In this document: positions 7,888-39,741 of the stretch, piece by piece
How positions within the stretch are numbered: position 1 is the first letter of the stretch
How the letters are laid out: each line of letters opens with the position of its first letter
Source of the DNA: a virus
Taxonomy: Duplodnaviria; Heunggongvirae; Uroviricota; Caudoviricetes
DNA length: 64,000 nucleotides
Virus record (IMG/VR): IMGVR_UViG_2737471844_000002
Location: 10,565-74,564 of that record
Direction: 5' to 3' (one strand)
The notes under the pieces: model-generated
The model's database searches: none
What the model was told of the DNA's origin: nothing
Seen by the model: the letters and a program-made list of their open reading frames with translations, nothing else
Program-made: the position numbers and the translations under genes

Positions 7888-7908
7888 TTTTTTTGAAGGT
7901 CTGACACA

Positions 7909-8115
7909 GTGAGCATTATCAGATTTACAGAATGCGCAGGTTCAGGGAGCACCAGCGCTGTCATGGTAGTCGCTGAACGCATCACCCATTTTTACCGTCA
8001 GTGTGGTGCATATGGTGGCACGATCATTGAGCTGGATACCGGGAAAAACGTGTATGTTCTTGAAAATCCCGACAAAGTTAAATGCCTGATTGAACAGGCT
8101 CAGAAGGTCACTTAA
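7909..8115 (+). CDS. hypothetical protein
   Basis: 68-aa ORF. Confidence 0.3.
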   Translation: MSIIRFTECAGSGSTSAVMVVAERITHFYRQCGAYGGTIIELDTGKNVYVLENPDKVKCLIEQAQKVT

Positions 8116-8615: not shown

Positions 8616-8661
8616 CCACAGCGGCCCGGTTTTCCGGGCCGTCTGATATTCGGGATTTGTA

Positions 8662-9402: not shown

Positions 9403-9403
9403 C

Positions 9404-11044: not shown

Positions 11045-11047
11045 TTA

Positions 11048-12643: not shown

Positions 12644-13796
12644 CGATGTTGACCTGGGTTATGCGTATACCCTGAAACCGGAAGAAGCGATTACGTATTT
12701 CGAAAGCAAGGGATACGTTATCGGCTTCCGCTGGCACGATGTGAGGGACATCGCCAGTGCCCGGGCGTTCACGGTGGCAGGCGTGCTGAAACTGGATGTT
12801 CTGAAGGATATCCGTGATGGCCTGACGACGACACTGGCTGATGGCGGGACGTTCCGGGAGTTTGCAGCACAACTGGAACCACTGCTGGAATCAAAAGGCT
12901 GGCTGGGTAAAAAGCTGATTGTGGACGAGGACACCGGCGAACTGCACGGCAGACAGCTGACGCCGCGCCGGTTGCGCACGATATTTGATACCAACATTCA
13001 GTCCGCCTATAACGCCGGGCGTTATCAGCAACAGATGGCGAACGTGGCTGACCGGCCTTATTTTGAGCGCGTGGCGGTGATGGACCTTCACACCCGCCCG
13101 AAACACGCCGCCCTGAACGGTTTTACCGCCCGGGCGGATGACCCGGTCTGGGAGTATTTCTACGCGCCGGACGGATACGGATGCCGCTGCCGTATCCGGG
13201 CGCGTTCAGCGTCTGATGTGGAGAAATACGGCCTGACGGTGCAGAGCAGCGAGGGGCGGCTGGTTGAGGTTGAACAGGAATATGGTCAGCCGGGCCAGAC
13301 CATCAGAACGATGGGGCTGAAGATGCCGGACGGCTCCGTGTATACCGCCGACCCGGGCTTCGGATTTAATCCCGGTCGGGTGGCATGGCAGCCGGAACCG
13401 GAAAAATACGATTACCGCAGCGCCCGCCAGTATGTCACCGGCACTCTGACCGGGCCGGATTTTGCCCGGGGACTGGCGAACGTCAGCGAACTGGATGCGC
13501 GCCAGCGATATCCGCTGGCCATCCGTTCACCGGAACAGGTCGCCGCCACGGGCGCTGCACGGCAGACGGTAAACCTTACGGCTGATGTCATGAAGCGCCT
13601 CAGTGCAGCAGACACGCCCCCGACCGCCGCCGACTATGTGCTGATGCAGCAGACCATCGAACGGGCGGAGCATGTCACACAGGACGGCAACGCGTGGCGG
13701 TATGCGTTACAGTCGGGCGACCGCTGGTCGGTGGTGACGGTGGAGGATGACGCGCTGACAGACTGGGTTATGCAGGATACCCCGGAGGCATCATGA
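12630..13796 (+). CDS. head morphogenesis protein (Mu F-like)
   Basis: 388-aa ORF overlapping the portal stop; resembles the Mu F / minor head family. Confidence 0.7.
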   Translation: MPTADDVDLGYAYTLKPEEAITYFESKGYVIGFRWHDVRDIASARAFTVAGVLKLDVLKDIRDGLTTTLADGGTFREFAAQLEPLLESKGWLGKKLIVDEDTGELHGRQLTPRRLRTIFDTNIQSAYNAGRYQQQMANVADRPYFERVAVMDLHTRPKHAALNGFTARADDPVWEYFYAPDGYGCRCRIRARSASDVEKYGLTVQSSEGRLVEVEQEYGQPGQTIRTMGLKMPDGSVYTADPGFGFNPGRVAWQPEPEKYDYRSARQYVTGTLTGPDFARGLANVSELDARQRYPLAIRSPEQVAATGAARQTVNLTADVMKRLSAADTPPTAADYVLMQQTIERAEHVTQDGNAWRYALQSGDRWSVVTVEDDALTDWVMQDTPEAS

Positions 13797-18399: not shown

Positions 18400-18622
18400 G
18401 GCGGCTCCCGGGGTGAAGTTCCCGATGGAGGATAACGCCCGGAAATACATCACCACGGAAGCGGTGACCGTTGAGAACACCGCTTATTACCGGCGCGCCG
18501 TTCAGGACGGTGACCTGATTCTGGTGAAAGATGAGCCTGAAATCACCGTGACGGCTGAACAGGACGCCGTGCAGGTAAAAGCGAAGGCGAAGAGAGAGAA
18601 ACAGGTGGATTCCGATGAGTGA
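18380..18622 (+). CDS. Mu gp38-like protein (DUF2635-like)
   Basis: 80-aa ORF immediately before the sheath gene. Confidence 0.45.
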   Translation: MNKMKVKAAPGVKFPMEDNARKYITTEAVTVENTAYYRRAVQDGDLILVKDEPEITVTAEQDAVQVKAKAKREKQVDSDE

Positions 18623-20036
18623 AATTCAGTTTGACACCATTTCGGGCGGTATCCGTAAGCCCGGTGTGCATTTTGAGTTTAATACCCGGCTGGCCGTTAA
18701 CACGCTGCCGGGTAATGAACAGCGTGTTCTGGTGATTGGCCCGATGCTGTCAGGCGGCACCGCCACGCCCCTGAATGCCGTTTCCGTGTATTCCGAAGAC
18801 GAAGCGGATTTGTATTTCGGGGCCGGTTCGCTGGCCGCTGCAATGGCGCGCGCGGCCATTAATGCCAACAGCTATCTGCAACTGGATGTTATCGGTATTG
18901 CAGACAGTGGCGCAGGAAAGGCAGCAACCGGCGCGGTTACCGTCAACGGTACGGCAATCAGCAGCGGAACACTGTCGGTATGGGTTGCCGGTGAGCAGGT
19001 TTCGGTGGATGTGGAAACCGGTGATGGACCGTCGAAAATCATTCCGGCACTGGTGGAAGCAATGACGCATACGCCCTCGCTTCTGGTGACGGGGGAATAC
19101 AAATCGGAAGCCTCTCAGCTGACGGTGACCACCCGGACCAAAGGAGCCTGGGGGAATGACATCACCCTGTCAGCATCCACCACGGCAGGTGGTCTGACCG
19201 TGAGCGCCACGCCGATGGCGAACGGTGAAATGGACCCGGATATTCAGCCCGCACTGGATGCGGTCTTTGCCGCCGGTCACAACATTCTGATTTGTCCGTT
19301 CAGTACCACGCCAGCCCTTGCCGCCCTGAAGCAGCATCTGGAGAAAACCGGGAACGCGATGGAACAGCGCGGCGCGATTGGCTGTGTGGGCTGGACGGGC
19401 AGTCTCGGAAACGGGATCACCCTGGCAGCAGGTGTGAACAGCGGGCGCGTGTCCGTCCCCTGGTATCGCGGCTCCGTGAAGCTGCCAGCGGTGCTGGCCG
19501 CCATCTACGGCGCTGTGATGGCGGGCGAGGAAGACCCGGCGCGTCCGCTGAACTCGCTGGCACTGTCCGGACTGGATGTGGTCGCCATGTCACAGCGTGA
19601 AAGCCGTAACGAGCAGGAAAACGCCCTGCATAACGGCCTGACGCCGGTTGAGGTTGGCCCGGGTAACACGGTGCAGATTGTGCGTGCGGTCAGTACATAC
19701 ACGGTTAACGCACAGGGCGTGACTGACGTCTCGTTACTGGATATCACGTCCATCAGAACGCTGGACTACACCCGCAAGGCGTGTCGCGAGCGCATCAGCC
19801 TTCGCTTCCCGCGCGAAAAACTCAGCACCCGCACTATCGCCAAAGTGGAAAGCGAACTGTATGACGTGCTGATCAAGCTGGAGGAAGCGGAGATTCTGGA
19901 GAACGTGGAAGCGAACAAGGCAAAGCTGCGCGTTCAGCGAAACGGGAAAGATGCAAACCGTCTCGACTGCGTGGTTCCGGCGGATGTGGTTAACGGCCTG
20001 CATGTGTTTGCCGGCCGCATCGACATGATTTTGTAA
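18615..20036 (+). CDS. tail sheath protein (Mu L-like)
   Basis: 473-aa ORF; contractile-tail sheath sequence character. Confidence 0.8.
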   Translation: MSEIQFDTISGGIRKPGVHFEFNTRLAVNTLPGNEQRVLVIGPMLSGGTATPLNAVSVYSEDEADLYFGAGSLAAAMARAAINANSYLQLDVIGIADSGAGKAATGAVTVNGTAISSGTLSVWVAGEQVSVDVETGDGPSKIIPALVEAMTHTPSLLVTGEYKSEASQLTVTTRTKGAWGNDITLSASTTAGGLTVSATPMANGEMDPDIQPALDAVFAAGHNILICPFSTTPALAALKQHLEKTGNAMEQRGAIGCVGWTGSLGNGITLAAGVNSGRVSVPWYRGSVKLPAVLAAIYGAVMAGEEDPARPLNSLALSGLDVVAMSQRESRNEQENALHNGLTPVEVGPGNTVQIVRAVSTYTVNAQGVTDVSLLDITSIRTLDYTRKACRERISLRFPREKLSTRTIAKVESELYDVLIKLEEAEILENVEANKAKLRVQRNGKDANRLDCVVPADVVNGLHVFAGRIDMIL

Positions 20037-26846: not shown

Positions 26847-27925
26847 TGCCGTTTCCTGTTCCGGGCGTTGCTGAAAACACAGAACGCCAGCTACGTGATA
26901 TCGCTAACGCCCTGCCGGGAGAAACCATAGACACCGGCGCTGACAGCGATTACCGCATTCGTGCAAATGCTGTATCCGGCGTGGCGGAGGGGCTTTTTAT
27001 GCATCAGGGATGGATCCTCCGTCAGGTGTTTCCTGACACGGCAGACCCTGAATATCTGGAGCTGCACTGTCGCACGCGCAATGTTTTTCGTAAAAAAGCA
27101 ACGGCCTCATCCGGTCCGGTGGTGATTACCGGCACACCCGGTAAGACGCTGCCAGCCGGTGCGGAAATTCGTGGTGAAGGTGTCAGCGTGGCCACCACAG
27201 CAGACTGCACCATCGGTGATGAAGGCAGCGCAGAGGTGACGGTAAAAAGCACCGCTACGGGGGCACAGACGAACGCATCCGCGACGCAGACGGCAACGCT
27301 GGTCAGTCCGCCGGAAGGCATCAACAGCACGGTGACGATTAAATCCCTGACCGGCGGAACGGACAGGGAAAGCGACGCTGACCTGCTGGCGCGTTATCTG
27401 GATATTCTGCGCAGGCCGCCCGCTGGCGGTAATAAATATGATTACAAACGCTGGGCGCTGGAGGTGGATGGCGTTACGTCTGCATATGTGGAGCCATTGC
27501 GCAGAGGGAAAGGTACTGTTGATGTGGCCATTACGTCAGCCAATGACATCCCCTCGCAGGAACTGATTAATGCCGTGCTGGCACATATTGAGGAAGTCCG
27601 CCCGGTGACAGCGAAGGACACGATGGTACTGGCTCCGACGAAAAAAGCCGTTGATTTCGTTGTCCGGGTAAAAACCAGCGGCCTGACCGTTGAGCAGATA
27701 AAACCGCAGATAACTGGCGTTATCACGGATTTCATGAACCGACTGGCGCCGGGGCAGGAATTAATTATTTCACAACTGGAAACCCAGATTTCACTCATTT
27801 CCGGTGTGAGTGACAGAAAAATAATCACGCCTGACGGGAATGTAAAAGCCGTGATTAATGCGTCAACGTGGGAATGGTTGCGTCCGGGGGATATTGATAT
27901 TCAGCCATTTCCCCGGGAGGGTTAA
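26846..27925 (+). CDS. baseplate protein (Mu gp47-like, gpJ family)
   Basis: 359-aa ORF. Confidence 0.7.
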   Translation: MPFPVPGVAENTERQLRDIANALPGETIDTGADSDYRIRANAVSGVAEGLFMHQGWILRQVFPDTADPEYLELHCRTRNVFRKKATASSGPVVITGTPGKTLPAGAEIRGEGVSVATTADCTIGDEGSAEVTVKSTATGAQTNASATQTATLVSPPEGINSTVTIKSLTGGTDRESDADLLARYLDILRRPPAGGNKYDYKRWALEVDGVTSAYVEPLRRGKGTVDVAITSANDIPSQELINAVLAHIEEVRPVTAKDTMVLAPTKKAVDFVVRVKTSGLTVEQIKPQITGVITDFMNRLAPGQELIISQLETQISLISGVSDRKIITPDGNVKAVINASTWEWLRPGDIDIQPFPREG

Positions 27926-27928
27926 TTC

Positions 27929-28501
27929 GTGAATACAGTCGATTTATTCCGCGCCATGCTGCCGCCGGTCAGTTATGACCTGAACGGGAAATATATTTCC
28001 GCGGAGCTGACAGCCGAGGCTAACGTCATGGAGGCCGTGAAGGCCTCAGCGGCGCGCGTTCTGGCACAAATCACCCCGTTGCAGGCATCGATGACGCTGT
28101 CCGACTGGGAGCGCGTGTACGGTGTTGTCCCCCGTGAAGGGGCAACCCAACAGGAGCGGCGGCAGAACATCCTGGTAAAAATGGCGGCAACGGGCGGGCT
28201 GTCCATTCCCTATTTTAAAAATCTGGCCGCAAGCCTGGGATACACCATAACGATAACCGAACCACGAGCCTTTCGCACCGGGGTAAATCGTTGCGGTGAC
28301 CGTCTGTTTATCCCTGAAATGCGCTGGGTATGGCAGGTCAATGTTATTGGTGCAAAAACGCCGGTATACCGTTTCAGAACGGGCGCATCTGCAACAGGTG
28401 AGCCGCTGACGGCCTTTGGTGAATCCATTTTAGAAAATACCTTTAAAGACCTTAAACCGGCTTTTACAGACTGTTATTTCACGTATGAGGATAAGCAGTA
28501 A
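27929..28501 (+). CDS. tail protein (Mu gp48-like, gpI family)
   Basis: 190-aa ORF, GTG start. Confidence 0.55.
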
Positions 28502-29430
28502 TGCAGAATTTAATTCCTCCGGTGAATACGCCGGATCAATTGTTTCACGATGGTGACCCCACTCAGGGCATTGAGGGCACTATTGTTTATGCTGAACACA
28601 TGAATAATCAGCAGGGAGCCATTCGTGACCTGCAACAGGAAATTATTAATGTGCTCCGTGCGGCTGATATATCACCGGACCCGAAGAAACAAAATCAACT
28701 GCTTGATGCTATATCGCAATATGTCGGGAAAAAAGTTCCTGACGCATCATTAACGAAGAAGGGCATCGTTCAGCTCAGTAGCGCAACAGACAGTGATTCA
28801 GAAACGGAAGCAGCCACACCAAAGGCAGTAAAATCACTGGCGGAAAAAATAACAGAATTGCAGGGAGTGGCTTTACCGGTAGGTACCCCAATACCGTGGC
28901 CGTCTGATTCAGTGCCACCCGGCTATGCCTTAATGCAGGGGCAGAGCTTTGATAAAGGCTCTTACCCTAAACTTGCAGCTGCCTACCCATCCGGGATTAT
29001 CCCGGATATGCGGGGCTGGACAATTAAGGGTAAGCCTGCCAGTGGTCGTGCTGTATTGTCTCAGGAGCAGGACGGCATTAAATCACACGCCCACAGTGCC
29101 AGTGCATCCAGTACGGATTTGGGGACGAAAACCACATCGTCGTTTGACTACGGAACTAAATCAACAAATAACACAGGTGGTCATAATCACGGTGTTGGTG
29201 AAAATGTTTCTGTCAGTGCCGGCAGTGGCAAAACAGTAAATATGAGTACCGGCACCGTAAATCTTTACACCAAATCTGCTGGCGCTCATGCGCACACTGT
29301 CGGCATTGGTGCTCATGTGCACACTGTTGCTATTGGTTCACACGGACACACCGTCACTGTTAACGCTACTGGTAACGCAGAAAACACCGTCAAAAACATC
29401 GCATTTAACTATATTGTGAGGCTTGCATAA
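28501..29430 (+). CDS. tail fibre protein
   Basis: 309-aa ORF; C-terminal half is near-identical to the C-terminus of the P2-like H protein at 51456-53588, including His-x-His repeats and the [18 protein letters not shown] end. Confidence 0.7.
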
Positions 29431-30005
29431 TGACTTTTAAAATGAGCGATAAAGCACGGACCATGCGTGTATTTAATTTTCTTGAAGATACAAAAGAATT
29501 TATCGGCAGTGGTGACGCTTATATACCGCCTCATACCGGATTACCCGCAAACTGTACGGATATTGTACCGCCGGAAATTCCCGAAGGTTTTACGGCAATG
29601 TTTGATACTGCTGACAATTCATGGCGTCTGGTAGAAGACCATCGGGGGGAAACAGTTTATTCAACGGAAACCGGAAATGCAGTCCCGATATCTGAACTGG
29701 GGGAACTTCCTGAAAATGTCACATTTATTGCACCAGACGGAGAATACCAGCGCTGGGATGGCAGTCAGTGGGTGACGGATGAAGAGGCGAAGCGTGATGC
29801 GCTGATTAATCAGGCGGCAGAAAAGAAAACCAGCCTGCTGAAACAGACTGGAGAACAAATCGCAATCTTACAGGATGCTGTTGATTTTGGTGAAGCAACA
29901 CCAGAGGAACAGGAGCAACTGACAGCCCTCAGAAAATTACGAATAAAGTTAAATCGTATTCAACCGGAAAATGCACCAGATATCGACTGGTCAGACTTTG
30001 AATAA
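29430..30005 (+). CDS. tail fibre assembly protein
   Basis: 191-aa ORF; homologous to the P2-like G product at 53588-54187 (shared [14 protein letters not shown] motif). Confidence 0.7.
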   Translation: MTFKMSDKARTMRVFNFLEDTKEFIGSGDAYIPPHTGLPANCTDIVPPEIPEGFTAMFDTADNSWRLVEDHRGETVYSTETGNAVPISELGELPENVTFIAPDGEYQRWDGSQWVTDEEAKRDALINQAAEKKTSLLKQTGEQIAILQDAVDFGEATPEEQEQLTALRKLRIKLNRIQPENAPDIDWSDFE

Positions 30006-30050
30006 ATTCCACAGCCGCCAGCAGGCGGCTTTTTATCATTCAGAGGCTCT

Positions 30051-31475
30051 ATGTCTGTATTAATTTCAGGGGCGCTGATTAATGGCGCTGGCGTTCCGAT
30101 GGCGGAATGCAAAATTTATTTAGATGCACTGGTTAATACCAGTGAAGTGGTCACTGAGTCATTTGCGGTTATTGAAACCGATGCGGCGGGACAGTATGCC
30201 TTTGAAGCACAAAAAGGCAAATACACCGTACACATCAAGCAAAAGAACGGCCCCAAGTGCTGCGTGGGTGACATTTCGGTTTACGACGACTCAAAGCCCG
30301 GCACGCTGAACGACTTTCTGACTGCCCTTGATGAAAGCGATTTAAAGCCGGATGTAGTGAAACGCTTTGAGGAACTGGCGCAACAGGCACAGCAGAGCGC
30401 GGAAGCCGCCGCTGGCAGCGAACAACAGGCAGGACAACACGCCACTGATGCACAGCAGATTAAGGCCGACTGTCAGGCGCTGGCGAAAGACGTACAGCAG
30501 AACGCCGACGCGGTTGCGGAGGGTAAACAACAGGTCGAAAATCTGGTCTCACAGGTTGAGAATGCCGCCGAGGAGGTAAAAAAGGACGCTGAAGCTGCTA
30601 AACAGGCCGCATCTGATGCAGAGCATGTCAGGGAGGATATTGACACCGCGTTATCTGCGACACTGAAAACGGCGAATCGTTTATCAGAGCTGGCTGATGA
30701 AGGTGAAGAGGCTCAGCAGGAATCCCGTGATAATCTTGGACTGAAAAGCGCTGCCACAATGACGCCACAGAGCGACATTCGTGACCGGACTGAAGGTCGT
30801 CTGGCGACACCTGGCGCATTTGGTTTTGGGCATATTTTTTTGCCCGCAGAGCGGATCCGTTTTAACACAGAGGATGATTTTCTGTCCTGGGTAAGGAATG
30901 CGACGCCGGGTGAATATTTTGTTGAGGGTGGCAGTAAAATCATATCCGGAGGTGTGTTGTTTAACGGGGTGGTCAGCATCCGGTGGGTTGAGGCACGCAA
31001 TAATCCACCGGAACCGCGATATACATCAAAGGCCATTATTTTCTACGGTATCAATGGCGATGTTTATTACAGCCGCTACTGGACAACAGGTAATGGTTAT
31101 CTGACTGGCTGGGAAAATCTGAAAATTACCTCACAGGACATTATCTCTCTTCTGTCCGGTATTGCTCCCGGTACCACGGACGGCTGGTACGGTGCAGGCA
31201 GTCTTGTACTGGCGGCTTATAACGGTAAGGGAGACGCAGACACCGACCGCCGGATAAAACGCGGTTACAGCTATCCGGGGTCACGCCTGAGCGCGGTTGA
31301 ATTTATGTGTCACGGCACGACCGGTAGCGGGGTTGGATATAACGGCAGCGTTTCCGTATATGTGCGGAGTTCTGGTGGTGGTATGCCGGGGTCATATCGG
31401 GCACTGTCAGGTGATGGGCTCGGGTCTGCCGGGTCAGCCAGTGTCATGATTGGTTTGTTCATACGTATTGCGTAG
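30051..31475 (+). CDS. side tail fibre protein (Phage_fiber_N / Stf-like)
   Basis: 474-aa ORF; N-terminus resembles lambdoid side-tail-fibre N domains, followed by an Ala/Gln-rich coiled segment. Confidence 0.65.
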   Translation: MSVLISGALINGAGVPMAECKIYLDALVNTSEVVTESFAVIETDAAGQYAFEAQKGKYTVHIKQKNGPKCCVGDISVYDDSKPGTLNDFLTALDESDLKPDVVKRFEELAQQAQQSAEAAAGSEQQAGQHATDAQQIKADCQALAKDVQQNADAVAEGKQQVENLVSQVENAAEEVKKDAEAAKQAASDAEHVREDIDTALSATLKTANRLSELADEGEEAQQESRDNLGLKSAATMTPQSDIRDRTEGRLATPGAFGFGHIFLPAERIRFNTEDDFLSWVRNATPGEYFVEGGSKIISGGVLFNGVVSIRWVEARNNPPEPRYTSKAIIFYGINGDVYYSRYWTTGNGYLTGWENLKITSQDIISLLSGIAPGTTDGWYGAGSLVLAAYNGKGDADTDRRIKRGYSYPGSRLSAVEFMCHGTTGSGVGYNGSVSVYVRSSGGGMPGSYRALSGDGLGSAGSASVMIGLFIRIA

Positions 31476-31482
31476 GTGTTTT

Positions 31483-32049
31483 ATGGAAATAAAACGCATC
31501 GAAAATGCGCGTTATCTTGAAAATGGCGCGATTGACTGCGGGGTGTTGTTTGATGGCATGGATGAACCGGTTCCGTATACGGCAACTGCCACGGATACAG
31601 CAGAGACAGGGCAGCGAGTCTGGCAGGAGCTGCAAAGTGGGAGATGGGGAGAAATAACGCCGTTCACCGTCACGCCAGAGATGCTGGAAGCAGCAAAAGC
31701 AGCCAAACGCCGGGAAATTGAAGCATGGCGCACAGAACAGGAGGCGCAGCCATTCATTTTTGAATGGAACGGCCATAGCTGGAACGGGGGACCGGATTCT
31801 ATGGCCCGTCTTTACCCGGTGGTGATGTCAGCAAAATCAGTCACGGCACGGAAATCTATGGTATGGGGTGATGCGGAAAATCAGCAGGTAAAGTTGTCAA
31901 TGCAACAACTGGATGAACTGCTTACTGCAATGGTTCAGGCGCAGGTCGATCGCAATGACGAGATTTATCGCCGTCAGCGGGAGATGAAGGAAACACTGGC
32001 GGGGCTGGATGACCTGAACACCATCAGAAGTCTGCCCATCAGTGAATAA
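31483..32049 (+). CDS. tail fibre assembly protein (Tfa-like)
   Basis: ATG 31483 within track ORF 31450-32049; Tfa-like sequence character. Confidence 0.6.
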   Translation: MEIKRIENARYLENGAIDCGVLFDGMDEPVPYTATATDTAETGQRVWQELQSGRWGEITPFTVTPEMLEAAKAAKRREIEAWRTEQEAQPFIFEWNGHSWNGGPDSMARLYPVVMSAKSVTARKSMVWGDAENQQVKLSMQQLDELLTAMVQAQVDRNDEIYRRQREMKETLAGLDDLNTIRSLPISE

Positions 32050-32062
32050 AAACGTAAGTGGT

Positions 32063-32142
32063 CAAATAAAGTGCTGTATCACCTTATTTTGCGCTTTATT
32101 CTGGATTTTTTTTATTATGTCAACCGTTCAAAATAAAGCGCT
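32063..32142. repeat. three AAATAAAGYGC motifs in alternating orientation at the Mu-like / P2-like junction
   Basis: caaataaagtgc (32063), gcgctttatt on the complementary strand (about 32091), caaaataaagcgc (32128); AT-rich 130-bp intergenic region. Confidence 0.3.
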
Positions 32143-32183
32143 AAATAGTCCAGAAAAAATCGCGAAGTTACACACGCGGCGCG

Positions 32184-34727
32184 GTGGATGAAGCCATGGC
32201 CTCGCTGCGCCTGCTGCCGTCCTATCTGCGCGATCCGCTTATTCGCCACCTCTCCTTCCTTCGCAAAAAACAGGAAGCCGATCGCCGGAAAGGCAAAAAG
32301 AGCTGGCAGGCGGAACGCTATGCACGCGGAACCCTGCGCAAAATATTCGAACGTCTGGATCGCACTGACGGACGCTGGCTGACACCGGGTTATCGCTCCC
32401 TTGCCGGACGCGAACGCCTGGACGATTTGCTTTACCTGCCGCAGCTCAACAAACACCAGATACAGACGTTGGCCACCATGACGGCGGCGATGTTCAGCAG
32501 CACCTTCGAAAAGCTCTGCGATGGCTTTGGCGCCAGAGATGGCGAGCTGACCATGGATGTAATGTTGAAGGCTTACCGGATGCTGGCTCGTATCGCATTA
32601 CGCCTGCACATCATGCCGCCACATTACGAAGCCCTGAACAAGAGCGAACCGGATACGGAACTGCTGCCGGGCGCAATCCTTCGCCTGACCTGTGCGGACT
32701 GGTGGAAACGCAAACTGTGGCTGTTACGTTGCGAGTGGAGAGAAGAACAACTCCGCGCCGCCTGTCTGGTTTCCAGAAAAACATCGCCTTATCTGAGCCA
32801 GGACGCGTTAAGCGAGTTTCGCGCACAGCGCGAGAAAACACGCGATTTCCTGAAAAGTTTCATGCTGGAAAACGAAGACGGGTTCACGATTGATCTCGAG
32901 ACAGTGTATTACGCGGGAGTAAGTAACCCGGTTCACCGTAAGGCAGAAATGATGGCCACCATGAAGGGGCTGGAACTTCTGGCCGAAGCCCGTGGTGACA
33001 AAGCGGTGTTTCTGACTGTCACCTGCCCGTCAAAATACCACGCAACAACGGAGAACGGTCATCCGAATCCCAAATGGAACGGGGCCACCATGCGCGACTC
33101 CAGCGATTACCTGGTTAACACGTTTTTTGCGGCGGTCCGCAAGAAACTGAACCGCGACGGCCTGCGCTGGTATGGCATCCGCACGGTGGAGCCTCACCAT
33201 GACGGCACCGTGCACTGGCATATGATGGTCTTTGCCCATCCGGAAGAAATCGACACCATTGTGTCCCACACCCGCGATATTGCCATTCAGGAAGATCGTC
33301 ACGAGCTGGGCGATGATATTACTCCGCGCTTTAAGGCGGAGTATGTCGACGGCTCAAAAGGCACGCCAACCAGCTACATCGCCACCTACATCGGAAAAAA
33401 CCTGGACAGCCGCGCCGTGGATGGCATCGCCCCGAAAACAGGCAAACCACGCGTTGACCACGAAACCGGAAAATCAATGGCCGAGAGCGTGGAGCGCGCC
33501 ATCGGCTGGGCGCGCCTTCACCGGGTCCGCCAGTTCCAGTTCTTTGGCATCCCCTCCCGTCAGGTGTGGCGTGAACTGCGCCGCCTTGCCAGCCAGATGG
33601 CACGCAACCCGGAAGGCCCGCAACGGCTGAAGGACGACGCAATGGATGCGGTACTCGCTGCCGCTGATGCCGGGTGTTTTGCCTCCTACATTGAAAAACA
33701 GGGTGGCGTACTTGTTCCACGCAAGGACTACCTGATTCGCACCGCCTACGACCTCGCAGATGAGCTGAACGATTACGGCGAACAGAGCGTACAGATTTAC
33801 GGGATCTGGTCACCACTCATCGGGGAATCCTCCCGTGTGTGCACGCACCCGGATAACTGGAAGCTGGTAAGACGTAAACCGGAAGCGGAAGACAGCGCCC
33901 GCGAAAATTGTTTTGACCTTCAGGGCGGCCCTGCCGCCCCTTGGACTCGTGGCAATAACTGTCCCCGTGTACAGGAAACGGACAACAACGGGACAGAACA
34001 GCCGGAAGAACGGCCAGCACCGTGGCCGCAGCTTCCTGACGGCGTTGATGTGGATGAATGGATGCGCTCACTGAAACGGCACGAACGCCGGGCGCTGATG
34101 CGTTCGCTGCGTGACAAACAGGCCAAAAACAGCAGTGATGAAATGCAGAACTGGACACAGAGCCGCAAACAGCCACAGCCTTTGCCTGATAAACACGAAT
34201 TACTCGCTAAAGAATGGCGGGAGTCTGCCGAATCTCTCGGCCTGCATATCGGTGAACAGCAGATGCAGCACCTGTTACGGGGCGGCAGCCTGTACGTTGA
34301 CGGCAGCATCATTGCACCGCAGGGATTTGAAATTGTACGCAAACCGGATACCCGCCCGGACAGCCGAATCACGCAGCTCTGGCAGCGCCTGAGCCGTAAT
34401 CACGGCGTAAGCAGCACGGAGATCCGCCATAACCCGGTCGCCAGCTATCTGGCACAGCTCGGGGCATCAGACCCCGAAGCCGCCGCACGCCTGGCATCCA
34501 CACTTCAGCAGGACCAGAACACCATGAAAACACCCGTTACCGTGCTTTCTGACATGCTGCGCGCCATTCGTGACGCAGAGCACGCACAGAGAATCAGTGA
34601 AACCACTGAACACGCCCGCCGCAAAGCAGACCTGCTGCGGGGTAGCCTGACCAGTGGCAACAAAAAACAGACAGAAACGGGATTCACAAATCCCGCAAAT
34701 GAGCAAAAAACGCGCCGCGATATATGA
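32184..34727 (+). CDS. A: P2-type replication initiation endonuclease gpA
   Basis: 847-aa ORF (GTG 32184 or ATG 32196); contains the rolling-circle initiator signatures VEPHHDGTVHWHMM and YIATYIGKNLD (paired Tyr). Confidence 0.8.
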   Translation: MDEAMASLRLLPSYLRDPLIRHLSFLRKKQEADRRKGKKSWQAERYARGTLRKIFERLDRTDGRWLTPGYRSLAGRERLDDLLYLPQLNKHQIQTLATMTAAMFSSTFEKLCDGFGARDGELTMDVMLKAYRMLARIALRLHIMPPHYEALNKSEPDTELLPGAILRLTCADWWKRKLWLLRCEWREEQLRAACLVSRKTSPYLSQDALSEFRAQREKTRDFLKSFMLENEDGFTIDLETVYYAGVSNPVHRKAEMMATMKGLELLAEARGDKAVFLTVTCPSKYHATTENGHPNPKWNGATMRDSSDYLVNTFFAAVRKKLNRDGLRWYGIRTVEPHHDGTVHWHMMVFAHPEEIDTIVSHTRDIAIQEDRHELGDDITPRFKAEYVDGSKGTPTSYIATYIGKNLDSRAVDGIAPKTGKPRVDHETGKSMAESVERAIGWARLHRVRQFQFFGIPSRQVWRELRRLASQMARNPEGPQRLKDDAMDAVLAAADAGCFASYIEKQGGVLVPRKDYLIRTAYDLADELNDYGEQSVQIYGIWSPLIGESSRVCTHPDNWKLVRRKPEAEDSARENCFDLQGGPAAPWTRGNNCPRVQETDNNGTEQPEERPAPWPQLPDGVDVDEWMRSLKRHERRALMRSLRDKQAKNSSDEMQNWTQSRKQPQPLPDKHELLAKEWRESAESLGLHIGEQQMQHLLRGGSLYVDGSIIAPQGFEIVRKPDTRPDSRITQLWQRLSRNHGVSSTEIRHNPVASYLAQLGASDPEAAARLASTLQQDQNTMKTPVTVLSDMLRAIRDAEHAQRISETTEHARRKADLLRGSLTSGNKKQTETGFTNPANEQKTRRDI

Positions 34728-34803: not shown

Positions 34804-35763
34804 ATGAAAATTTGTATCGACGACGGCTCCACCAACATCAAGCTGGCATGGACTGAAAACGGCGAACGCCGCAACGCCATCAGCCCGAACAGCTTCAAGT
34901 CGGAATGGTCTGCGCCGTTCGGTGGCTCGCAGCCTGCGAACTACATGCTTGATGGCGTGCGCTATGGTTTTGATCCGGTCAGCGATCGCTTTGTCCAGAC
35001 GACCGACACGCAATACCAGTACAGCGATGTGAATGTCATTGCCATTCATCACGCGCTGGTCAAATCAGGCATCACGCCACAGGAAGTGGATGTTGTTGTC
35101 ACCCTGCCACTGAGCGAATATTTCGACACTAACGCCCAGCCGGACATGGCCAACATCAACCGCAAAAAAGCGAACGTTATGCGCCCGGTGGAGTACCAGA
35201 ACGGTGAGGCATTCACTATCCGTAACGTGCGGGTTATGCCTGAATCCATTCCGGCTGGCTTTAAGGCACTGGCTGACATGAGTCCGTTTGAATCCCTGCT
35301 GATTGTGGATTTGGGCGGAACCACGCTGGATGTGGCAAAGGTTCAGGGGCAACTGGCAGGTATCAGCCAGGTGTTTTGCGATCCACACGTAGGCGTTTCT
35401 CTGATGGCCGATGCCGTACTGTCGGTGATGGCCACTAACGGTATGCGCACCAGTCACCACATAGCCAATACCATTATCGAACATCGCCATGATGAAGCCT
35501 GGCTGCGCCAGCACATCCACAATGACGCGCATTACGCCAGCCTGATGGCGGTTATTCGTGAAAAGGAAGAAACACTGAAACAACGTGTTATCCGCGCGCT
35601 GGCGGTTTTTTCGGGTTACGGGCGGGTGATGGTTGTCGGTGGAGGGGCGGAGATTGTGGCACCCGCTATCCGCGAAGCCTGCGGAGTTAATGCGACTTTC
35701 ATCGCGGACGGGGTGCCACAGTTTGCTCTGGTTAATGGGCTGTACGCAATGGACAAGGAGTAA
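34804..35763 (+). CDS. parM: ParM/StbA actin-like segregation ATPase
   Basis: 319-aa ORF; strong resemblance to plasmid R1 ParM (MKICIDDGSTNIKL, YSDVNVIAIHHAL, LLIVDLGGTTLD). Confidence 0.8.
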   Translation: MKICIDDGSTNIKLAWTENGERRNAISPNSFKSEWSAPFGGSQPANYMLDGVRYGFDPVSDRFVQTTDTQYQYSDVNVIAIHHALVKSGITPQEVDVVVTLPLSEYFDTNAQPDMANINRKKANVMRPVEYQNGEAFTIRNVRVMPESIPAGFKALADMSPFESLLIVDLGGTTLDVAKVQGQLAGISQVFCDPHVGVSLMADAVLSVMATNGMRTSHHIANTIIEHRHDEAWLRQHIHNDAHYASLMAVIREKEETLKQRVIRALAVFSGYGRVMVVGGGAEIVAPAIREACGVNATFIADGVPQFALVNGLYAMDKE

Positions 35764-35767
35764 ACCA

Positions 35768-36079
35768 ATGACGACTCCAACCAGACGGATAAGTTTCTAT
35801 CTGAAGCCCACCGCCGTCAAGAACGAAGGAGAAGCATGCGCCTGGCTGGACAGCCTTACACCAGAAGCCCGCAAAAGCGGCCAACGCGTGGCTTTTCTGG
35901 CCGGGCTGGCACTTCTGAAAATGAATCCGGCAGAGGCTTACCGACTGGCTGCATGGGCTGATGATGAGGTGTTATCAGTGACACAAACCAAGACAGAACG
36001 CCCCGCGTCACAGCCAGTATCAACCGCACAGATAACCAGTCAGATGGCCGGAAATATCCGGGCGTTATTTCCTGAATAA
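35768..36079 (+). CDS. parR: ParR/StbB-like partition adaptor
   Basis: ATG 35768 five nt after the parM stop; 103-aa product with N-terminal RISFYLKP...LDSLTPEARKSGQ pattern resembling R1 ParR. Confidence 0.5.
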   Translation: MTTPTRRISFYLKPTAVKNEGEACAWLDSLTPEARKSGQRVAFLAGLALLKMNPAEAYRLAAWADDEVLSVTQTKTERPASQPVSTAQITSQMAGNIRALFPE

Positions 36080-36457: not shown

Positions 36458-37540
36458 ATGGTAAACGTGAGGGAGGATGAACTTTTCAAACTCATCGAGC
36501 AAGGCATCAAAGGCAACGCAAATGCATTTACACTCCTATGCAGAAAGATGATTAACAACATCCGTAAAAATGATGAGGCTTTAGCTTCTAAGCTGGCTTC
36601 GTTAGTTGCTGAGGGAACAGTATTACGTGGGGCATCTAGTAAGGCTCCTATGCCTGTGGATGGAGACTCCAGACGAAACCTTTTGCAGGAAACATCTGTC
36701 AACGCAATTGTTGAAGAACCTGTATGGAATACGGATATCTCAAAGAAGCTGGAGTCAATTGTTAACGAAAGAGAGAATGCGGTTTCTTTGTTCAAAGCTG
36801 GTCTTGAACCTGTGAAGACGGTTTTACTTTCTGGCCCGCCAGGCGTAGGCAAAACAATGTCCGCACATTGGCTTGCTGCAAAGTTAAATTTACCTCTTTT
36901 AACATTGGATCTCTCATCTGTAATGAGTTCTCTTTTGGGAAAAACAGGTAATAATATTAAATCCGTTATGGATTATGCCAAAGAGAAACCATGTGTCCTT
37001 TTGCTTGATGAATTTGATGCTGTTGCAAAAAGACGTGATGATGACAGGGACGTTGGAGAATTAAAACGTTTAGTTACTGTACTCCTACAGACCATAGATG
37101 AGTGGCCAGCGACCTCGCTTCTTGTTGCTGCGACTAATCACCCTGATATCTTAGATCCGGCTGTTTGGCGTCGATTTGAGCACATCCTTAAATTTAATAT
37201 GCCATCAGTAGAACTGATAGATAGATATTTAGTCAATCATAATATTGAACCTGAACTATCTAAAAAACTTGCACCATTATTAGATGGCATGTCCTTTGCC
37301 ATCATTAACCGTATTTTGAATTTCTCCAAAAAGAATGAGGTACTTAGAAATATTCCATTTGAAAGCTCATTAATAGAAGCCGTAATTACGGAGAGGGTTT
37401 CATTGGATGAGTTTAGCGATAATGATCTCAATATAATTAAATATCATTTTGACGGTTTTTCAAATAGGAAGATAGCTGAATTAGTTGGTGTTTCACATCC
37501 AACAATCGCGAATAAATTACAAAAGTGGGGGATTAAATGA
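36458..37540 (+). CDS. AAA+ ATPase with C-terminal HTH domain
   Basis: 360-aa ORF; Walker A GPPGVGKT, Walker B LLLDEFD, sensor/Arg-finger region ATNHPDILDPAVWRRFE; C-terminal GFSNRKIAELVGVSHPTIANKLQKWG helix-turn-helix; AT-rich. Confidence 0.8.
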   Translation: MVNVREDELFKLIEQGIKGNANAFTLLCRKMINNIRKNDEALASKLASLVAEGTVLRGASSKAPMPVDGDSRRNLLQETSVNAIVEEPVWNTDISKKLESIVNERENAVSLFKAGLEPVKTVLLSGPPGVGKTMSAHWLAAKLNLPLLTLDLSSVMSSLLGKTGNNIKSVMDYAKEKPCVLLLDEFDAVAKRRDDDRDVGELKRLVTVLLQTIDEWPATSLLVAATNHPDILDPAVWRRFEHILKFNMPSVELIDRYLVNHNIEPELSKKLAPLLDGMSFAIINRILNFSKKNEVLRNIPFESSLIEAVITERVSLDEFSDNDLNIIKYHFDGFSNRKIAELVGVSHPTIANKLQKWGIK

Positions 37541-39741
37541 TGGAAAGGAACTTACTTTTAGGTAACGGTCATGTTCTGACAAAAAAGGAACCTTTGCCTA
37601 AAGGAAGGGATGGTAAGCGCTATCCCTATACTCTTGAAGAAGTAAGGGAGCATTTAAACCCAGAGATTGATACTTTACTCTCACGCTTTCGCAGTTTGGA
37701 TGATGCGGCTAAGCCAAGGGGGGAGAGTGTATTCAATTTAACTTTACACCCAGCGTTTTTGGGTAAAAGCTACTTTCCGGAAGGATTGCTTAGAGCGACA
37801 GGTTTACGGGATGTCGGTAGCCGTCAGGTAATCATTCGCCCACGGAAAGCGGCACGTCAGTGCGATCAGAATAAGGACTTAGTAACGGCGCAACTGTTTG
37901 TTAGCGGTGATGATGATGCCGTTATAAGATTTAAGGAAATTTTAAATTCCCCTACAGCTCCGAAGGGCGTACAAAAGGATTTGATCGAAATTGAAAGTGT
38001 TAGCTTTTTTGAAGGAAAAGAGAGAGCACGCAATTTTGAGCATGCGAAAAGTGATTTGATAAAATTTGAAGTGGTTCTTCATGCTGGGGTTGAAGACGAT
38101 GATATCGTTAAAGCCTATATTAGCTATGCGGCACAATATGATGTCTCTGTTGATTACAAAAGTAGAATCCAAGTTGGTGGGCTGACTTTCATCGTTGCAC
38201 ACGCGCGACCTGAAGATATGAAAAAAACACTCGATTTTTCATTAATCCGCGTTGTGCGGCCGATGCCGTCTCTCAGGTGTACTCAGCCGAACATTGTCAG
38301 AAAGTTATCTAATATAGTTACACCGGAGCTCCCTAATTCTAAAGCTGTTCTTGAATCCGAACGTATTGCCATTTTTGATGGTGGCTTGGGGACAGCTGAC
38401 TTGAGTAATTGGGTTACGGAATACGTGTATCCAGACACCAAAGAAACAAGCGGATTATTATTGCAGCACGGTAATGAAGTGACATCCACTTTCTTATTCG
38501 GACGTGTCGAGGAAAATGCACCTTCTTTTAAAAGACCGTTTATGAATGTAGATCATTATAGAGTTCTTTCACCGACATCAGGTGACAATGGCAATTGGGA
38601 TTTATTTGATGTCCTTAAGAAAATACAGTCCGTTCTTGATAGTGGTGACTATAAGTTCGCTAATCTAAGTATTGGTCCTCATCTTCCAATTGGTGATGAT
38701 GAGGTTCATGTATGGACTGCTGTTTTAGACCAAATCTGTGCTAAGCATGGGATATTACTTACTGTTGCTGTTGGGAATGATGGCAATGAGGACGGTGATG
38801 CAGCGAGAATACAACCTCCTTCCGATATGGTAAACGCGCTAGCGATTGGTGCTGCTGATCGTAGCGGTGAAAAATGGGGGCGGGCACCATATAGCTGTAT
38901 TGGGCCAGGCAGAAGCCCCGGATTCGTTAAACCTGATGGTGTTATTTTTGGTGGAAGCGACGACGAGCCTTTTTACACTTACAACCCTCTGCTTGGTTCT
39001 ATAGTTGGAGTTCAAGGAACCAGTTATGCCTCTCCATTAGCATTGAGAACGGCCGCTGGAGTTGCGGCTCTATCAGGAACTCCATTGAACACCATTGCAT
39101 TGAAAGCGTTGCTTGTTCATCATGCTGAAACATCAAGAAAATATTCGCGTGAACATATCGGTTGGGGACGGTTTAGTGAGGATCCTAACGTTTTAATCGA
39201 TTGTCCAAATGATACTGCTACAGTAATTTACTATGGTTCATTAGCAAAAAATAAATATTTAAGGGCACCGATCCCATTCCCTGATGTTCCCTTTGACGAA
39301 GCATTTGAGCTTACCGCTACTTTATGCATTCAAACCCCAGTAGATCCTGAACATTCAGTAAACTATACAAGGGCCGGTATGCAGGTAACTTTCCGCCCAA
39401 GATTCGGCCTTGACGATACCGATACAGATGATTTCTTTGGTCAAAAAAGCCAGTATAAGACTGAAAGGGAGTGTAGGAGTGAAGGTCATAAATGGGAAAC
39501 TTGTTTGCACAGAAGCAAAAAGTTCAGTGCTGATACATTATTAAGCGATCCAGTTTTTGATATACGGTATCATGCCCGAGATTCTTCGCGCCATGTTAAG
39601 GGAGTTTCAGCCCCTGATATGCAATATGCGATGGTAATAAGCGTAAGGGTAAAAGACTTTGATTTATATAATGTTATTCGCCAGCGATATACAATTCTGA
39701 ATCCTATTCAACTGCGCACACAAATTTCTCTCGACACGTAA
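37537..39741 (+). CDS. S8 subtilisin-like serine protease with N- and C-terminal extensions
   Basis: 734-aa ORF with ATGA overlap to the ATPase gene; catalytic triad motifs IAIFDGGLG (Asp codon 38377-38379), LQHGNEV (His codon 38467-38469), GTSYASP (Ser codon 39022-39024) in canonical D-H-S order and spacing. Confidence 0.8.
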   Translation: MMERNLLLGNGHVLTKKEPLPKGRDGKRYPYTLEEVREHLNPEIDTLLSRFRSLDDAAKPRGESVFNLTLHPAFLGKSYFPEGLLRATGLRDVGSRQVIIRPRKAARQCDQNKDLVTAQLFVSGDDDAVIRFKEILNSPTAPKGVQKDLIEIESVSFFEGKERARNFEHAKSDLIKFEVVLHAGVEDDDIVKAYISYAAQYDVSVDYKSRIQVGGLTFIVAHARPEDMKKTLDFSLIRVVRPMPSLRCTQPNIVRKLSNIVTPELPNSKAVLESERIAIFDGGLGTADLSNWVTEYVYPDTKETSGLLLQHGNEVTSTFLFGRVEENAPSFKRPFMNVDHYRVLSPTSGDNGNWDLFDVLKKIQSVLDSGDYKFANLSIGPHLPIGDDEVHVWTAVLDQICAKHGILLTVAVGNDGNEDGDAARIQPPSDMVNALAIGAADRSGEKWGRAPYSCIGPGRSPGFVKPDGVIFGGSDDEPFYTYNPLLGSIVGVQGTSYASPLALRTAAGVAALSGTPLNTIALKALLVHHAETSRKYSREHIGWGRFSEDPNVLIDCPNDTATVIYYGSLAKNKYLRAPIPFPDVPFDEAFELTATLCIQTPVDPEHSVNYTRAGMQVTFRPRFGLDDTDTDDFFGQKSQYKTERECRSEGHKWETCLHRSKKFSADTLLSDPVFDIRYHARDSSRHVKGVSAPDMQYAMVISVRVKDFDLYNVIRQRYTILNPIQLRTQISLDT

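Follow-up and report, generated by a model that had tools for sequence, protein, structure and literature searches.

Two tandem tail fibre and chaperone pairs at the right end of a Mu-like E. coli prophage, with possible display of both fibres

The right end of the prophage and the first fibre pair

The window is the whole stretch of DNA that was analyzed (64,000 nucleotides). Both fibre pairs in it belong to a Mu-like transposable prophage of E. coli (Table 1). The preliminary description had placed two fibre/assembly pairs in tandem on one strand, at 28501-30005 and 30051-32049, and all four open reading frames (ORFs) are at these positions on the + strand. It had also called the phage Mu-like. 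This holds, as homologues of gp47 and gp48, DUF3164, GemA and Mor-type early genes lie inside the window. The gp47 and gp48 homologues were found by profile match 5' of the fibre pairs. The Mu-type structural and regulatory genes of the prophage comprise gp46-48, N/DNA circularization, the gpT head gene, Mor, GemA and DUF3164. The prophage of STEC316 is 98% identical, and its RefSeq annotation agrees with this gene content. MuA (HTH_Tnp_Mu_1, Mu-transpos_C) and MuB are encoded by all relatives that have an identical DUF3164 protein; the left ~5 kb of this prophage lies outside the window. A 24-kb megablast query matched nothing but fibre fragments in 50,697 phage records, so no isolated phage of the family was found there.

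Table 1. Features at the right end of the Mu-like prophage (positions in the window)
Feature	Position	Strand	Evidence or remark
Mu gp48-type baseplate wedge protein (YmfQ family)	27929..28501	+	PF10076 Phage_Mu_Gp48, E 4.8e-31
Fibre 1, short baseplate fibre, 309 aa	28501-29430	+	Phage_fiber_2 and Collar domains (Pfam)
Chaperone 1, lambda Tfa/T4 gp38-type tail fibre assembly protein, 191 aa	29430-30005	+	
Terminator-like hairpin	30013..30040	+	Terminator scan; stem AGCCGCC…GGCGGCT, then TTTTTATCATT
Fibre 2, 474 aa	30051-31475	+	PF08400 "prophage tail fibre N-terminal"
Fibre 2 residues 1-93, Stf-N "collar" (Ig-like) anchor	30051..30329	+	Mu-like-specific subtype
Fibre 2 residues 94-235, linker and Ala/Gln/Glu-rich shaft	30330..30755	+	
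Fibre 2 residues 236-474, distal head	30756..31475	+	Presumed receptor-binding domain
Chaperone 2, DUF4376 fibre chaperone, 188 aa	31483..32049	+	PF14301, phrog_1141
Right end (attR) of the Mu-like prophage	32050..32172	+	Ends …CGCGAAGTTACA
Replication endonuclease (gpA) gene, 5'-truncated	32184..34727	+	P88-like P2-type prophage; context only

The right end contains repeated GCGCTTTAT / TTCTGG motifs. An inverted repeat within it (32085-32103 / 32129-32147) resembles motifs of the family's left end. The terminal sequence is identical in STEC316, where it adjoins a different host gene, agaE. Similarity to phage P88 starts at 32173 and continues at 96% DNA identity. The gpA gene matches Phage_GPA (E 6e-131), and its alignment to phrog_91 begins at profile position 73. 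Judged from the sequence, the Mu-like phage inserted into this replication gene of the P88-like prophage. As marks of Mu-type insertion we took integration at unrelated sites, ends of the form 5'-TG…CA-3' and duplication of a 5-bp target. Seven copies of the family sit in seven distinct host contexts and have a common left end, TGTGGGGTAG, and a common right end, …GTTACA. A search with the DUF3164 protein brought up six insertions other than the one here. The exact repeat at the target in STEC316 is 4 bp only (CCCT), and the window is without its own left end.

Both fibres carry the expected fibre domains, and each chaperone carries its family domain. The first pair follows a wedge protein with 29% identity to Mu gp48 (E 4e-15). 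In Mu itself, each wedge has one gp48 loop, on which the S-type fibre N-terminus docks (PMC11915804). The wedge protein here is presumed to be the docking platform for fibre 1. Fibre 1 begins with ~66 aa that are constant in the family, continues with a fibre repeat and a collar domain, and ends in a His-rich tip of the T4 gp37/lambda Stf type. Its residues 44-111 resemble residues 47-141 of Mu S, and the C-terminus is homologous to the T4 gp37 tip (PDB 2xgf, E 1.3e-74). The first ~200 nt of the gene are conserved across the Mu-like family, and the remainder is divergent. The gp37-like needle tip is followed by a Caudo_TAP gene, which encodes chaperone 1 (Caudo_TAP E 5.5e-33, 114 bits; phrog_105 "tail fiber assembly" E 7e-83). 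Chaperone 1 also has ~80% DNA identity to lambda stf-tfa. Fibre 1 is a pseudogene in STEC316, so at least one family member cannot display both fibres. The chance that one of the two genes was a nonfunctional remnant had been raised for this prophage, and both fibre genes proved to be intact.

The gap between the pairs is 45 bp and contains a hairpin with a fold energy of -13.9 kcal/mol, plus a T-run. The stem is short (7 bp), with five consecutive T only. It sits 10 nt 5' of the fibre 2 start codon, and the ribosome-binding site of fibre 2 (AGAGG) is directly 3' of it. All Mu-like family loci have a hairpin and T-run at this position, as two different sequences. A scan restricted to sigma-70-like sites found none 3' of the hairpin from which pair 2 could have its own promoter. 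With the hairpin and no such promoter after it, fibre 2 may be made at a low level.

The second fibre pair and its relatives

The preliminary description had read the N-terminus of fibre 2 as lambdoid side-tail-fibre (Stf) type. PF08400 and homology to the solved lambda Stf N-domain bear this out. Residues 1-134 match profile positions 1-134 of 134 (161.2 bits; cut-off 26.6). The collar, residues 1-93, matches the lambda domain 9e7m at E 2.9e-16 with a single sequence and E 8.4e-26 with a profile. Fibre 2 also matches XM1 gp40 (7kjk; E 2.9e-7 single sequence, 2.1e-11 profile). Over residues 1-92, Mu-like family members are 97% identical to one another and 59-63% identical to other chassis; P2-like, P27-like and "X" phages each have an Stf-N subtype of their own (92-95% identity). 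The collar is ~44% identical to primary lambdoid Stf proteins. Its dN/dS of 0.00-0.12, at a synonymous divergence (pS) of up to 0.41, indicates that it is under strong purifying selection in the Mu-like prophage family.

In the alignment, the shaft falls on the 100-residue coiled-coil helix of XM1 gp40, and its counterpart in lambda Stf is the proximal coiled coil (PMC12617516). We infer that it is a trimeric coiled coil. The head is 97-98% identical to heads of lambdoid and "X"-chassis prophages and 89-91% identical to heads joined to P2-H-type N-termini (loci P0049-53). An AF2 monomer model of residues 236-474 had a pLDDT of 76.5. It gave no significant fold match in the PDB; the best was to the C-terminal domains of phage K gp144 (E 0.12). 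Because a monomer model says little about a trimeric head, we name no receptor.

Chaperone 2 matches DUF4376 (PF14301) with 56.6 bits (cut-off 25, E 4e-15). The mechanical ORF begins at TTG 31450, and homologues and the RefSeq annotation of relatives begin at ATG 31483. This ATG (MEIKRIENARY…) is 8 nt 3' of the fibre 2 stop and has an AGGTG ribosome-binding site. We assign the true start to 31483. The DUF4376 domain covers residues 81-185 of the 199-aa ORF translation, or 70-174 of the 188-aa protein. The domain thus falls in the C-terminal half of the protein, whose gene comes directly after the fibre gene and is cognate with the distal head. No similarity to Mu U or Caudo_TAP was found, in sequence or fold. 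The dN/dS of chaperone 2 is 0.07-0.19. The DUF4376 family is experimentally needed for fibre function in Alteromonas phage V22 (gp27) and in the Campylobacter CJIE1 prophage. Chaperone 2 is the predicted chaperone of fibre 2.

The cassette of Stf-N fibre and DUF4376 gene was found in 25 of the 59 Mu-like family members in 5426 complete E. coli genomes. It is dispensable, since the other 34 lack it. Candidate lysogens with an intact copy are STEC346, UMNF18 and the E. coli strain encoding PU08_09025 (P0001), the 100% match. In this family the slot 5' of attR is space for variable cargo. Across ~95 related loci the Stf-N fibre is always extra, beside a primary fibre/chaperone pair. These add-on fibres occur in Mu-like, phiP27-like and P2-like phages, in a fourth myovirus ("X") and in lambdoid phages. 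The order gp48, fibre, Tfa, Stf-N fibre, DUF4376, attR was also found in C5, STEC316, phiP27 and ~10 IMG/VR loci. The layout is thus not peculiar to this phage; the published phiP27 and many prophages have the same one.

Fibre 2 is a mosaic. The 10 complete Mu-like copies are all open reading frames of 467-760 aa, and their length classes recur in other chassis. Synonymous divergence from a lambdoid copy drops along the gene from 0.71 to 0.40 to 0.03. The head and the DUF4376 gene travel together. Loci with heads at least 95% identical have DUF4376 proteins that are 83-98% identical, and loci with heads 30-50% identical have DUF4376 proteins that are 53-74% identical. These patterns point to horizontal swapping of the head and chaperone and to a chassis-specific collar. 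In P2-like prophages the Stf-N gene lies after gpD, ~6 kb from H-G. A comparison of docking partners over 10 kb of flank showed that a single Stf-N subtype (93%) is common to the P27-like and "X" chassis, whose baseplate J proteins have no detectable similarity. A shared subtype despite unlike J proteins argues that the docking partner is not simply the wedge. The adaptor and tail-terminator proteins of the family are encoded between ~16988 and ~18399, among the head-completion ORFs.

Search for inversion machinery and comparison with known systems

The preliminary description had seen no invertase and no inverted fibre copy, and the searches agree. In a tblastn search with Gin, the best match in the window had an E of 2.4, and 85 related loci gave none. 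The query is 99.5% identical to Mu gin. No invertase is annotated in the whole STEC316 prophage. The crossover-site core AAACCNNGGTTT is absent from 27791-32300 with up to 1 mismatch; as a positive control, it was found in sister prophages that have an invertible segment. No long inverted repeats were found in 27500-32300, where there are short, chance-level ones only. The ORF list contains no minus-strand fibre ORF.

The Mu G segment (S/U, S'/U', gin) occupies the same slot, after gp48 and before the right end, and likewise provides two receptor specificities. Unlike the G segment, this locus has no shared constant fibre N-terminus, inverted copy, gix site or invertase. With two complete fibre genes on one strand, one specificity does not exclude the other as it does in Mu. 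The same slot holds a G-like invertible segment in sister prophages of the family and a second pair here. In CFS3292 and tcmA_3 an inverted Tfa'/fibre-C' cassette is bounded by gix-like sites, and the two prophages are in opposite states.

The closest layout is that of phiP27. Genes L53-L57 (NC_003356) have the identical right-end order: gp48-like wedge, short fibre, Tfa, Stf-N fibre (490 aa), DUF4376 and attR. Its tail module is likewise of Mu type, with a DNA-circularization protein and gp46-48-like wedges. It differs in being an integrase-type Stx2e phage, whereas the phage here is transposable. Its baseplate proteins are ~26% identical to those here. Its Stf-N subtype is different (63% identical), as is its head (30%), and no hairpin lies between its pairs. 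No functional study of phiP27 L56/L57 or of the Stf-N cassette was found in the literature searched, including that on dual-fibre Mu-like phages and PF08400.

Two solved structures contain a related N-terminal domain. Ur-lambda Stf (PDB 9e7m) has a homologous N-terminal beta-sandwich collar followed by a linker and coiled coil, as in fibre 2 (PMC12617516). In lambda, 12 collar copies ring the gpV/gpM junction and bear four trimeric accessory fibres, which speed adsorption next to the main adhesin gpJ (PMC12617516). The phage here differs from lambda in its contractile Mu-like tail, in which the gpV/gpM junction is not exposed. The chaperone of the Stf-N fibre is also DUF4376 and not Tfa. The lambda Stf-type tip and Tfa-type chaperone are on pair 1 here and the Stf N-terminus is on fibre 2, in separate proteins. 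The contractile-tailed Vibrio myophage XM1 combines a simple baseplate of Mu-like type with gp40, an additional trimeric adhesin (PDB 7kjk; PMC10457771). Six gp40 trimers encircle the neck, where they sit on the head-completion and tail-terminator proteins (PMC10457771). The Ig-like N-domain and 100-residue coiled coil of gp40 align with fibre 2 residues 2-206, and the similarity is remote. Unlike fibre 2, gp40 has a tailspike-like C-terminus, and its gene is away from the tail genes.

Display of the two fibres

The phage probably displays two kinds of fibre together instead of switching between them. Our main reading, with a probability of roughly 0.6, is that pair 2 works as an add-on fibre cassette with a separate docking site, giving a virion with both fibres at once. 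The sequence shows the gene content, the homologies, the place of the cassette inside the transposable unit, the lack of inversion machinery, the chassis-linked conservation and the mosaicism; from these we infer expression, assembly into the virion, docking site and stoichiometry. Fibre 1 would attach by its Mu-S-like N-terminus to six gp48 wedge sites, with its tip folded by the Tfa-type chaperone. Fibre 2 would be a separate trimeric fibre with a collar tuned to the Mu-like chassis, and it would dock elsewhere. Its Ig-like collar domains would probably encircle a six-fold ring of the tail or neck, by analogy with Ur-lambda and XM1. An assembly of this kind would comprise 12 or 18 domains, and its indirect support here is the chassis-specific conservation of the collar. 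Its head and cognate DUF4376 chaperone would be exchanged horizontally with other prophages. Both fibres would come from the late tail transcript, and fibre 2 would require read-through of the hairpin. One virion would then have two receptor specificities, whereas Mu and some sister prophages show one at a time with an invertible segment.

Several observations strengthen co-display. Both fibre genes are intact. Their N-terminal anchors are unrelated, Mu-S-like in fibre 1 and an Stf collar in fibre 2. The collar is chassis-specific and under purifying selection, and the distal part is shuffled. The solved lambda and XM1 rings sit apart from the main adhesin. A chassis-specific collar with a swapped head and chaperone also argues for a functional fibre at its own site. 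On the other side stand the hairpin with no sigma-70-like promoter after it, the collar subtype common to P27-like and "X" phages with unlike J proteins, the family members that lack the cassette and the fibre 1 pseudogene of STEC316.

Fibre 2 could instead be functional without a separate ring site, which we consider unlikely. Its collar may sit on the fibre 1 N-terminus or on the gp47/gp48 rim, giving a branched or mixed adhesin, or fibre 2 may compete with fibre 1 for the baseplate. In the Mu-like, P27-like and "X" chassis the genes of the pairs lie side by side in one orientation, and fibre 1 has a constant N-terminus that is likewise chassis-specific and could be the co-varying partner. 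A 474-aa fibre whose shaft has ~140 residues would not span the distance between neck and cell in a phage with a long tail. Against this stands the distance of the Stf-N gene from H-G in P2-like prophages, and the lambda and XM1 rings surround six-fold tail or neck rings, not another fibre. The lack of similarity between the fibre N-termini also makes direct competition for the gp48 loop unlikely. Less probable still is that fibre 2 is conditional or weakly expressed cargo. The hairpin would stop most late transcripts, and only a minority of virions, or those made under particular conditions, would carry fibre 2. This would be bet-hedging by transcription, not by DNA inversion. The retention of the hairpin and T-run structure in two sequences across the family is in keeping with it, as are the lack of a promoter-like site 3' of the hairpin and the cargo nature of the pre-attR slot. 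The shortness of the hairpin and its T-run tells against it, as do phiP27-like and "X" loci, which have the cassette and lack a hairpin. The strong purifying selection seen in the collar also implies regular use.

The least probable account, which we regard as very unlikely, is that the pair is a passenger from a lambdoid or P27-like prophage that does not assemble on a contractile tail and is a decaying or neutral remnant. In its favour, a lambdoid prophage has a head 97-98% and a chaperone 87% identical to these, siphoviruses were the first known source of Stf, and most family members are without the cassette. However, every complete Mu-like copy is open, and the collar is a family-specific subtype with ~60% identity to others, not a recent lambdoid import. 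The collar dN/dS is low, only the distal part was recently exchanged, and the selection data already largely refute the remnant account. The main reading remains that of a functional second fibre at its own site.

The layout itself is not new. Its parts are known, the gene order was sequenced in phiP27 in 2002, and nothing is overturned. As a tentative extension, Stf-N and DUF4376 may be a portable "second-adhesin kit" in at least four kinds of contractile-tailed temperate phage and in lambdoids. Such a kit would have a chassis-specific collar adaptor and, on myoviruses, whose sheath covers the tube, a non-wedge dock (e.g., the neck, as in XM1). It would give constitutive dual specificity and, inside the Mu-like family, would be interchangeable with a G-type segment in one slot. 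The host range of a temperate phage decides which strains are lysogenised or transduced, and which are killed by engineered tailocin-like particles. A chassis-specific collar with a swappable head and chaperone is a design rule for phage retargeting, and the position of the Stf-N ring on a sheathed tail is a concrete cryo-EM target. If co-display is confirmed, a simple Mu-type contractile tail can bear a second set of fibres by means of a lambda-type collar adaptor. Closely related prophages would then choose between constitutive dual display and phase-variable inversion in one slot.

The Mu-like prophage and its fiber genes

Four co-oriented ORFs in the window's ORF list occupy 28501-32049, and they carry the domains expected of two fiber/assembly pairs. 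The tandem arrangement was thus placed correctly in the preliminary description. Fiber 1 and chaperone 1 form pair 1; fiber 2 and chaperone 2 form pair 2. The start of chaperone 2 follows its homologues and the RefSeq annotation of relatives; the mechanical ORF list gave TTG 31450.

Features of the window and of compared loci (E. coli prophages and IMG/VR loci in their own coordinates)
Feature	Locus	Positions	Length	Assignment
Fiber 1	window	28501-29430	309 aa	phage fiber repeat and Collar domain
Chaperone 1	window	29430-30005		Caudo_TAP/Tfa protein
Fiber 2	window	30051-31475	474 aa	PF08400 'prophage tail fibre N-terminal', whole profile length, 161 bits
Chaperone 2	window	31483 (ATG)-32049		DUF4376 domain
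ORF between DUF1804 and terminase genes	window	8662-9402	246 aa	
P88-like prophage	window	32173-64000		Xuanwuvirus, P2-type
Replication endonuclease gene	window	32184-34727		lacks ~70 N-terminal codons
Partition genes	window	34804-36079		ParM (StbA_N/ParM, E 2e-82) and Plasmid_stab_B protein
IetAS gene pair	window	36458-39741		IetA AAA ATPase (PADLOC E 3.6e-89) and IetS subtilase (E 6.6e-41)
ORF after H and G fiber genes	window	54222-55460	412 aa	weak family-9 glycosyltransferase (heptosyltransferase) match, E 2.6e-6
Fiber 1 copy	STEC316 (L003)	37930-38865		annotated as two pseudogene fragments
Inverted cassette	CFS3292 (L086)	8943-10801		Tfa'/fiber-C'
Inverted cassette	tcmA_3 (L095)	6943-8871		Tfa'/fiber-C'
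Third slot variant	RIVM_C036569 (L087)	10481-11536	351 aa	no Pfam match
Methyltransferase gene	family member (L088)	18538-19278		N6/N4 DNA methyltransferase, PF01555
Stf-N fiber and DUF4376 genes	P2-like prophage (L018)	10001-12744		directly after gpD

Homologues of Mu gp47 and gp48 lie upstream of the fiber genes. A sheath gene and early genes (DUF3164, DUF2786 and GemA) lie farther upstream. A 98% identical prophage in STEC316 runs from genes for a CI-like repressor, a Ner-like protein, MuA and MuB to Mor and the lysis genes, then continues with head and tail genes of Mu type and with the four fiber genes seen in the window. The STEC316 prophage lies between agaF and agaE and contains neither mom nor an invertase gene. 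It is the closest complete relative; fiber 2 and both chaperones are intact, but with its fiber 1 so annotated this copy could at most display the Stf-N fiber. No isolated member of the family was found in the phage collection searched. The 246-aa ORF matches the position of the methyltransferase gene of several family members, and it might provide mom-like protection where mom is missing.

An identical DUF3164 protein led to six more copies, each in a different host context and all with the left end TGTGGGGTAG. The right end, …CGCGAAGTTACA, is common to the window (last base 32172) and STEC316. From 32173 on, the window matches P2-like phage P88 at 96% identity, beginning within the replication endonuclease gene. 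On this sequence, the Mu-like prophage is one that transposed into a P88-like prophage. The transposable unit includes pair 2, which is separated from pair 1 by 45 bp and from the terminal CA by 123 bp.

The junction at 32172/32173 leaves one prophage nested in another. The endonuclease codons were lost because the Mu-like prophage transposed into the gene, which probably disables P88-like phage replication. The partition genes beside it are of plasmid type, in a P2-like phage, and are likewise annotated in P88. After these stability genes, the P88-like prophage carries as cargo a low-GC (40 to 43%) gene pair matching the IetAS anti-phage defense system. The 412-aa ORF lies in a 35% GC island immediately after the P88-like H and G fiber genes. 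It may be an LPS-modifying moron adjoining the fiber genes.

Inversion machinery and the second-fiber slot

The preliminary description reported neither an invertase nor an inverted fiber copy, and sequence searches bore this out. A Gin query (99.5% identical to Mu gin) gave no tblastn match, either in the window, where the best E was 2.4, or among 85 related loci. The crossover core AAACCNNGGTTT was absent from the fiber region at ≤1 mismatch. Inverted repeats in 27500-32300 were short and weak, apart from transposase-site repeats in attR.

The searches were able to detect an inversion system, since they recovered one in two sister prophages. CFS3292 and tcmA_3 belong to the same family (gp47/48 at ~84% DNA identity). 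Both contain an inverted cassette in the slot, the stretch between the first fiber pair and attR. Inverted gix-type sites of the AAACCTTGGTTTGGGAGAAG type bound this G-like segment. Divergence between the two begins exactly at these sites, and an internal stretch is in opposite orientation. Neither prophage has its own invertase gene. This points to a Din-family invertase of another element acting in trans. RIVM_C036569 contains a third variant, and this ORF replaces the second fiber or invertible segment in the slot of seven family members. The baseplate family is present in ~59 of 5,426 complete E. coli genomes, and an Stf-N gene follows the first pair in 25 of the 59; several of these genomes are clonal.

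The second fiber across phage types

The preliminary description also assigned fiber 2 a lambdoid side-tail-fiber N-terminus. The PF08400 match confirms this, as does the homology (E 2.9e-16) between residues 1 to 93 and the N-domain of lambda Stf, whose structure was solved in Ur-lambda (9e7m). Residues 2 to 206 are homologous to the N-domain and coiled coil of gp40, the "collar spike" of Vibrio myophage XM1 (7kjk; E 2.9e-7). A profile search reached 8e-26 for 9e7m and 2e-11 for 7kjk and found no other solved relatives. The head (residues 236 to 474) has no recognizable solved relative.

DUF4376 proteins encoded after fiber genes are needed for fiber function in Alteromonas phage V22 and the Campylobacter CJIE1 prophage. 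A confident model of chaperone 2 (pLDDT 92) has no similarity to Mu U or Caudo_TAP, so the two chaperones are from different families.

A scan of IMG/VR with fiber 2 residues 1 to 240 retrieved 80 loci. Neighboring genes placed them in five groups: Mu-like, phiP27-like, "X" (our name; with a 408-aa baseplate J-like protein), P2-like (Stf-N gene after gpD) and lambdoid (Stf-N gene after stf-tfa). The Stf-N fiber is extra to a primary fiber/chaperone pair in all five. The gene order of phiP27 L53 to L57 is identical to that of the window. The P2-like prophages (L018 and ~22 other loci) encode an Stf-N fiber of 405 to 1,046 aa ~6 kb from the H-G fiber genes, and their collars form a separate subtype with 95% mutual identity.

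Pair 2 could be a dead passenger, but the comparison argues strongly against this. The collar domain clusters by chassis (phage type), with mean within-chassis identities of 0.97 (Mu-like), 0.95 (P2-like), 0.95 (P27-like) and 0.92 ("X"). Identity of the Mu-like collar to all other chassis is 0.59 to 0.63. Collar dN/dS is 0.00 to 0.12 within the Mu-like family, with pS up to 0.41. The head has been exchanged. Its identity is 97 to 98% to heads of lambdoid and "X" prophages and 89 to 91% to those that carry a fused N-terminus of P2-H type. Synonymous divergence from the lambdoid copy declines from the collar (0.71) through the shaft (0.40) to the head (0.03). Stf-N fibers are 467 to 760 aa in the Mu-like family, with the same length classes in other chassis. 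This pattern marks a conserved virion adaptor to which a receptor-binding module, traded horizontally, is joined.

Proposed docking and display

Mu has six trimeric fibers with N-termini docked on a gp48 loop (PMC11915804). The gene before fiber 1 encodes a homologue with 29% identity to Mu gp48, fiber 1 shares the Mu S N-terminal segment, and its first ~66 residues are constant across the family. Fiber 1 should thus occupy the six gp48 sockets. Homology to the T4 gp37 receptor-binding needle (PDB 2xgf; E 1e-74) extends over its C-terminal 185 residues; lambda Stf also bears a tip of this type. The lambda stf-tfa region has ~80% DNA identity to the C-terminal part of fiber 1 and the chaperone 1 gene.

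The anchor of fiber 2 is unrelated to that of fiber 1, so fiber 2 would dock elsewhere. In Ur-lambda, twelve Stf N-domains form a collar around the gpV/gpM ring junction and bear four trimeric side fibers (PMC12617516). In XM1, eighteen domains, seated on the head-completion and tail-terminator proteins, encircle the neck and bear six trimers (PMC10457771). By analogy, the Ig-like domains of fiber 2 would form a collar around a six-fold ring. The neck is a candidate site; XM1 is the only precedent for such a collar on a sheathed tail. Fiber 2 is short (shaft of roughly 140 residues). At the neck, it would be better suited to early, reversible contact than to triggering the baseplate.

The late tail transcript presumably covers both pairs. 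Between them is a hairpin (-13.9 kcal/mol) with TTTTTAT after it. The Mu-like family retains this hairpin in two sequence forms, of which the C5 type, named for a relative, has -16.0 kcal/mol; phiP27-like loci have none. The hairpin may set a lower dose of fiber 2 and is the main uncertainty on its expression. The earlier interpretation, that two fibers may be displayed at once, stands in part. The tandem pairs, Stf-type N-terminus and lack of an inversion system are confirmed, and simultaneous display is likely.

All of the parts are already known: the Stf collar domain, gp37-type tip, Tfa and DUF4376 chaperone. The tandem layout also occurs in RefSeq-annotated prophages and in a phage whose sequence dates from 2002. 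The literature searched contained no functional work on this cassette in either Mu-like or phiP27-like phages. New here are the chassis-specific collar subtypes, the wide range of chassis that bear the add-on cassette, and a single prophage family with both tandem and G-like invertible solutions for the same slot. Stf-N fibers may form a neck or other non-socket collar on Mu-, P2- and P27-type myoviruses and serve as a general, portable second adhesin.
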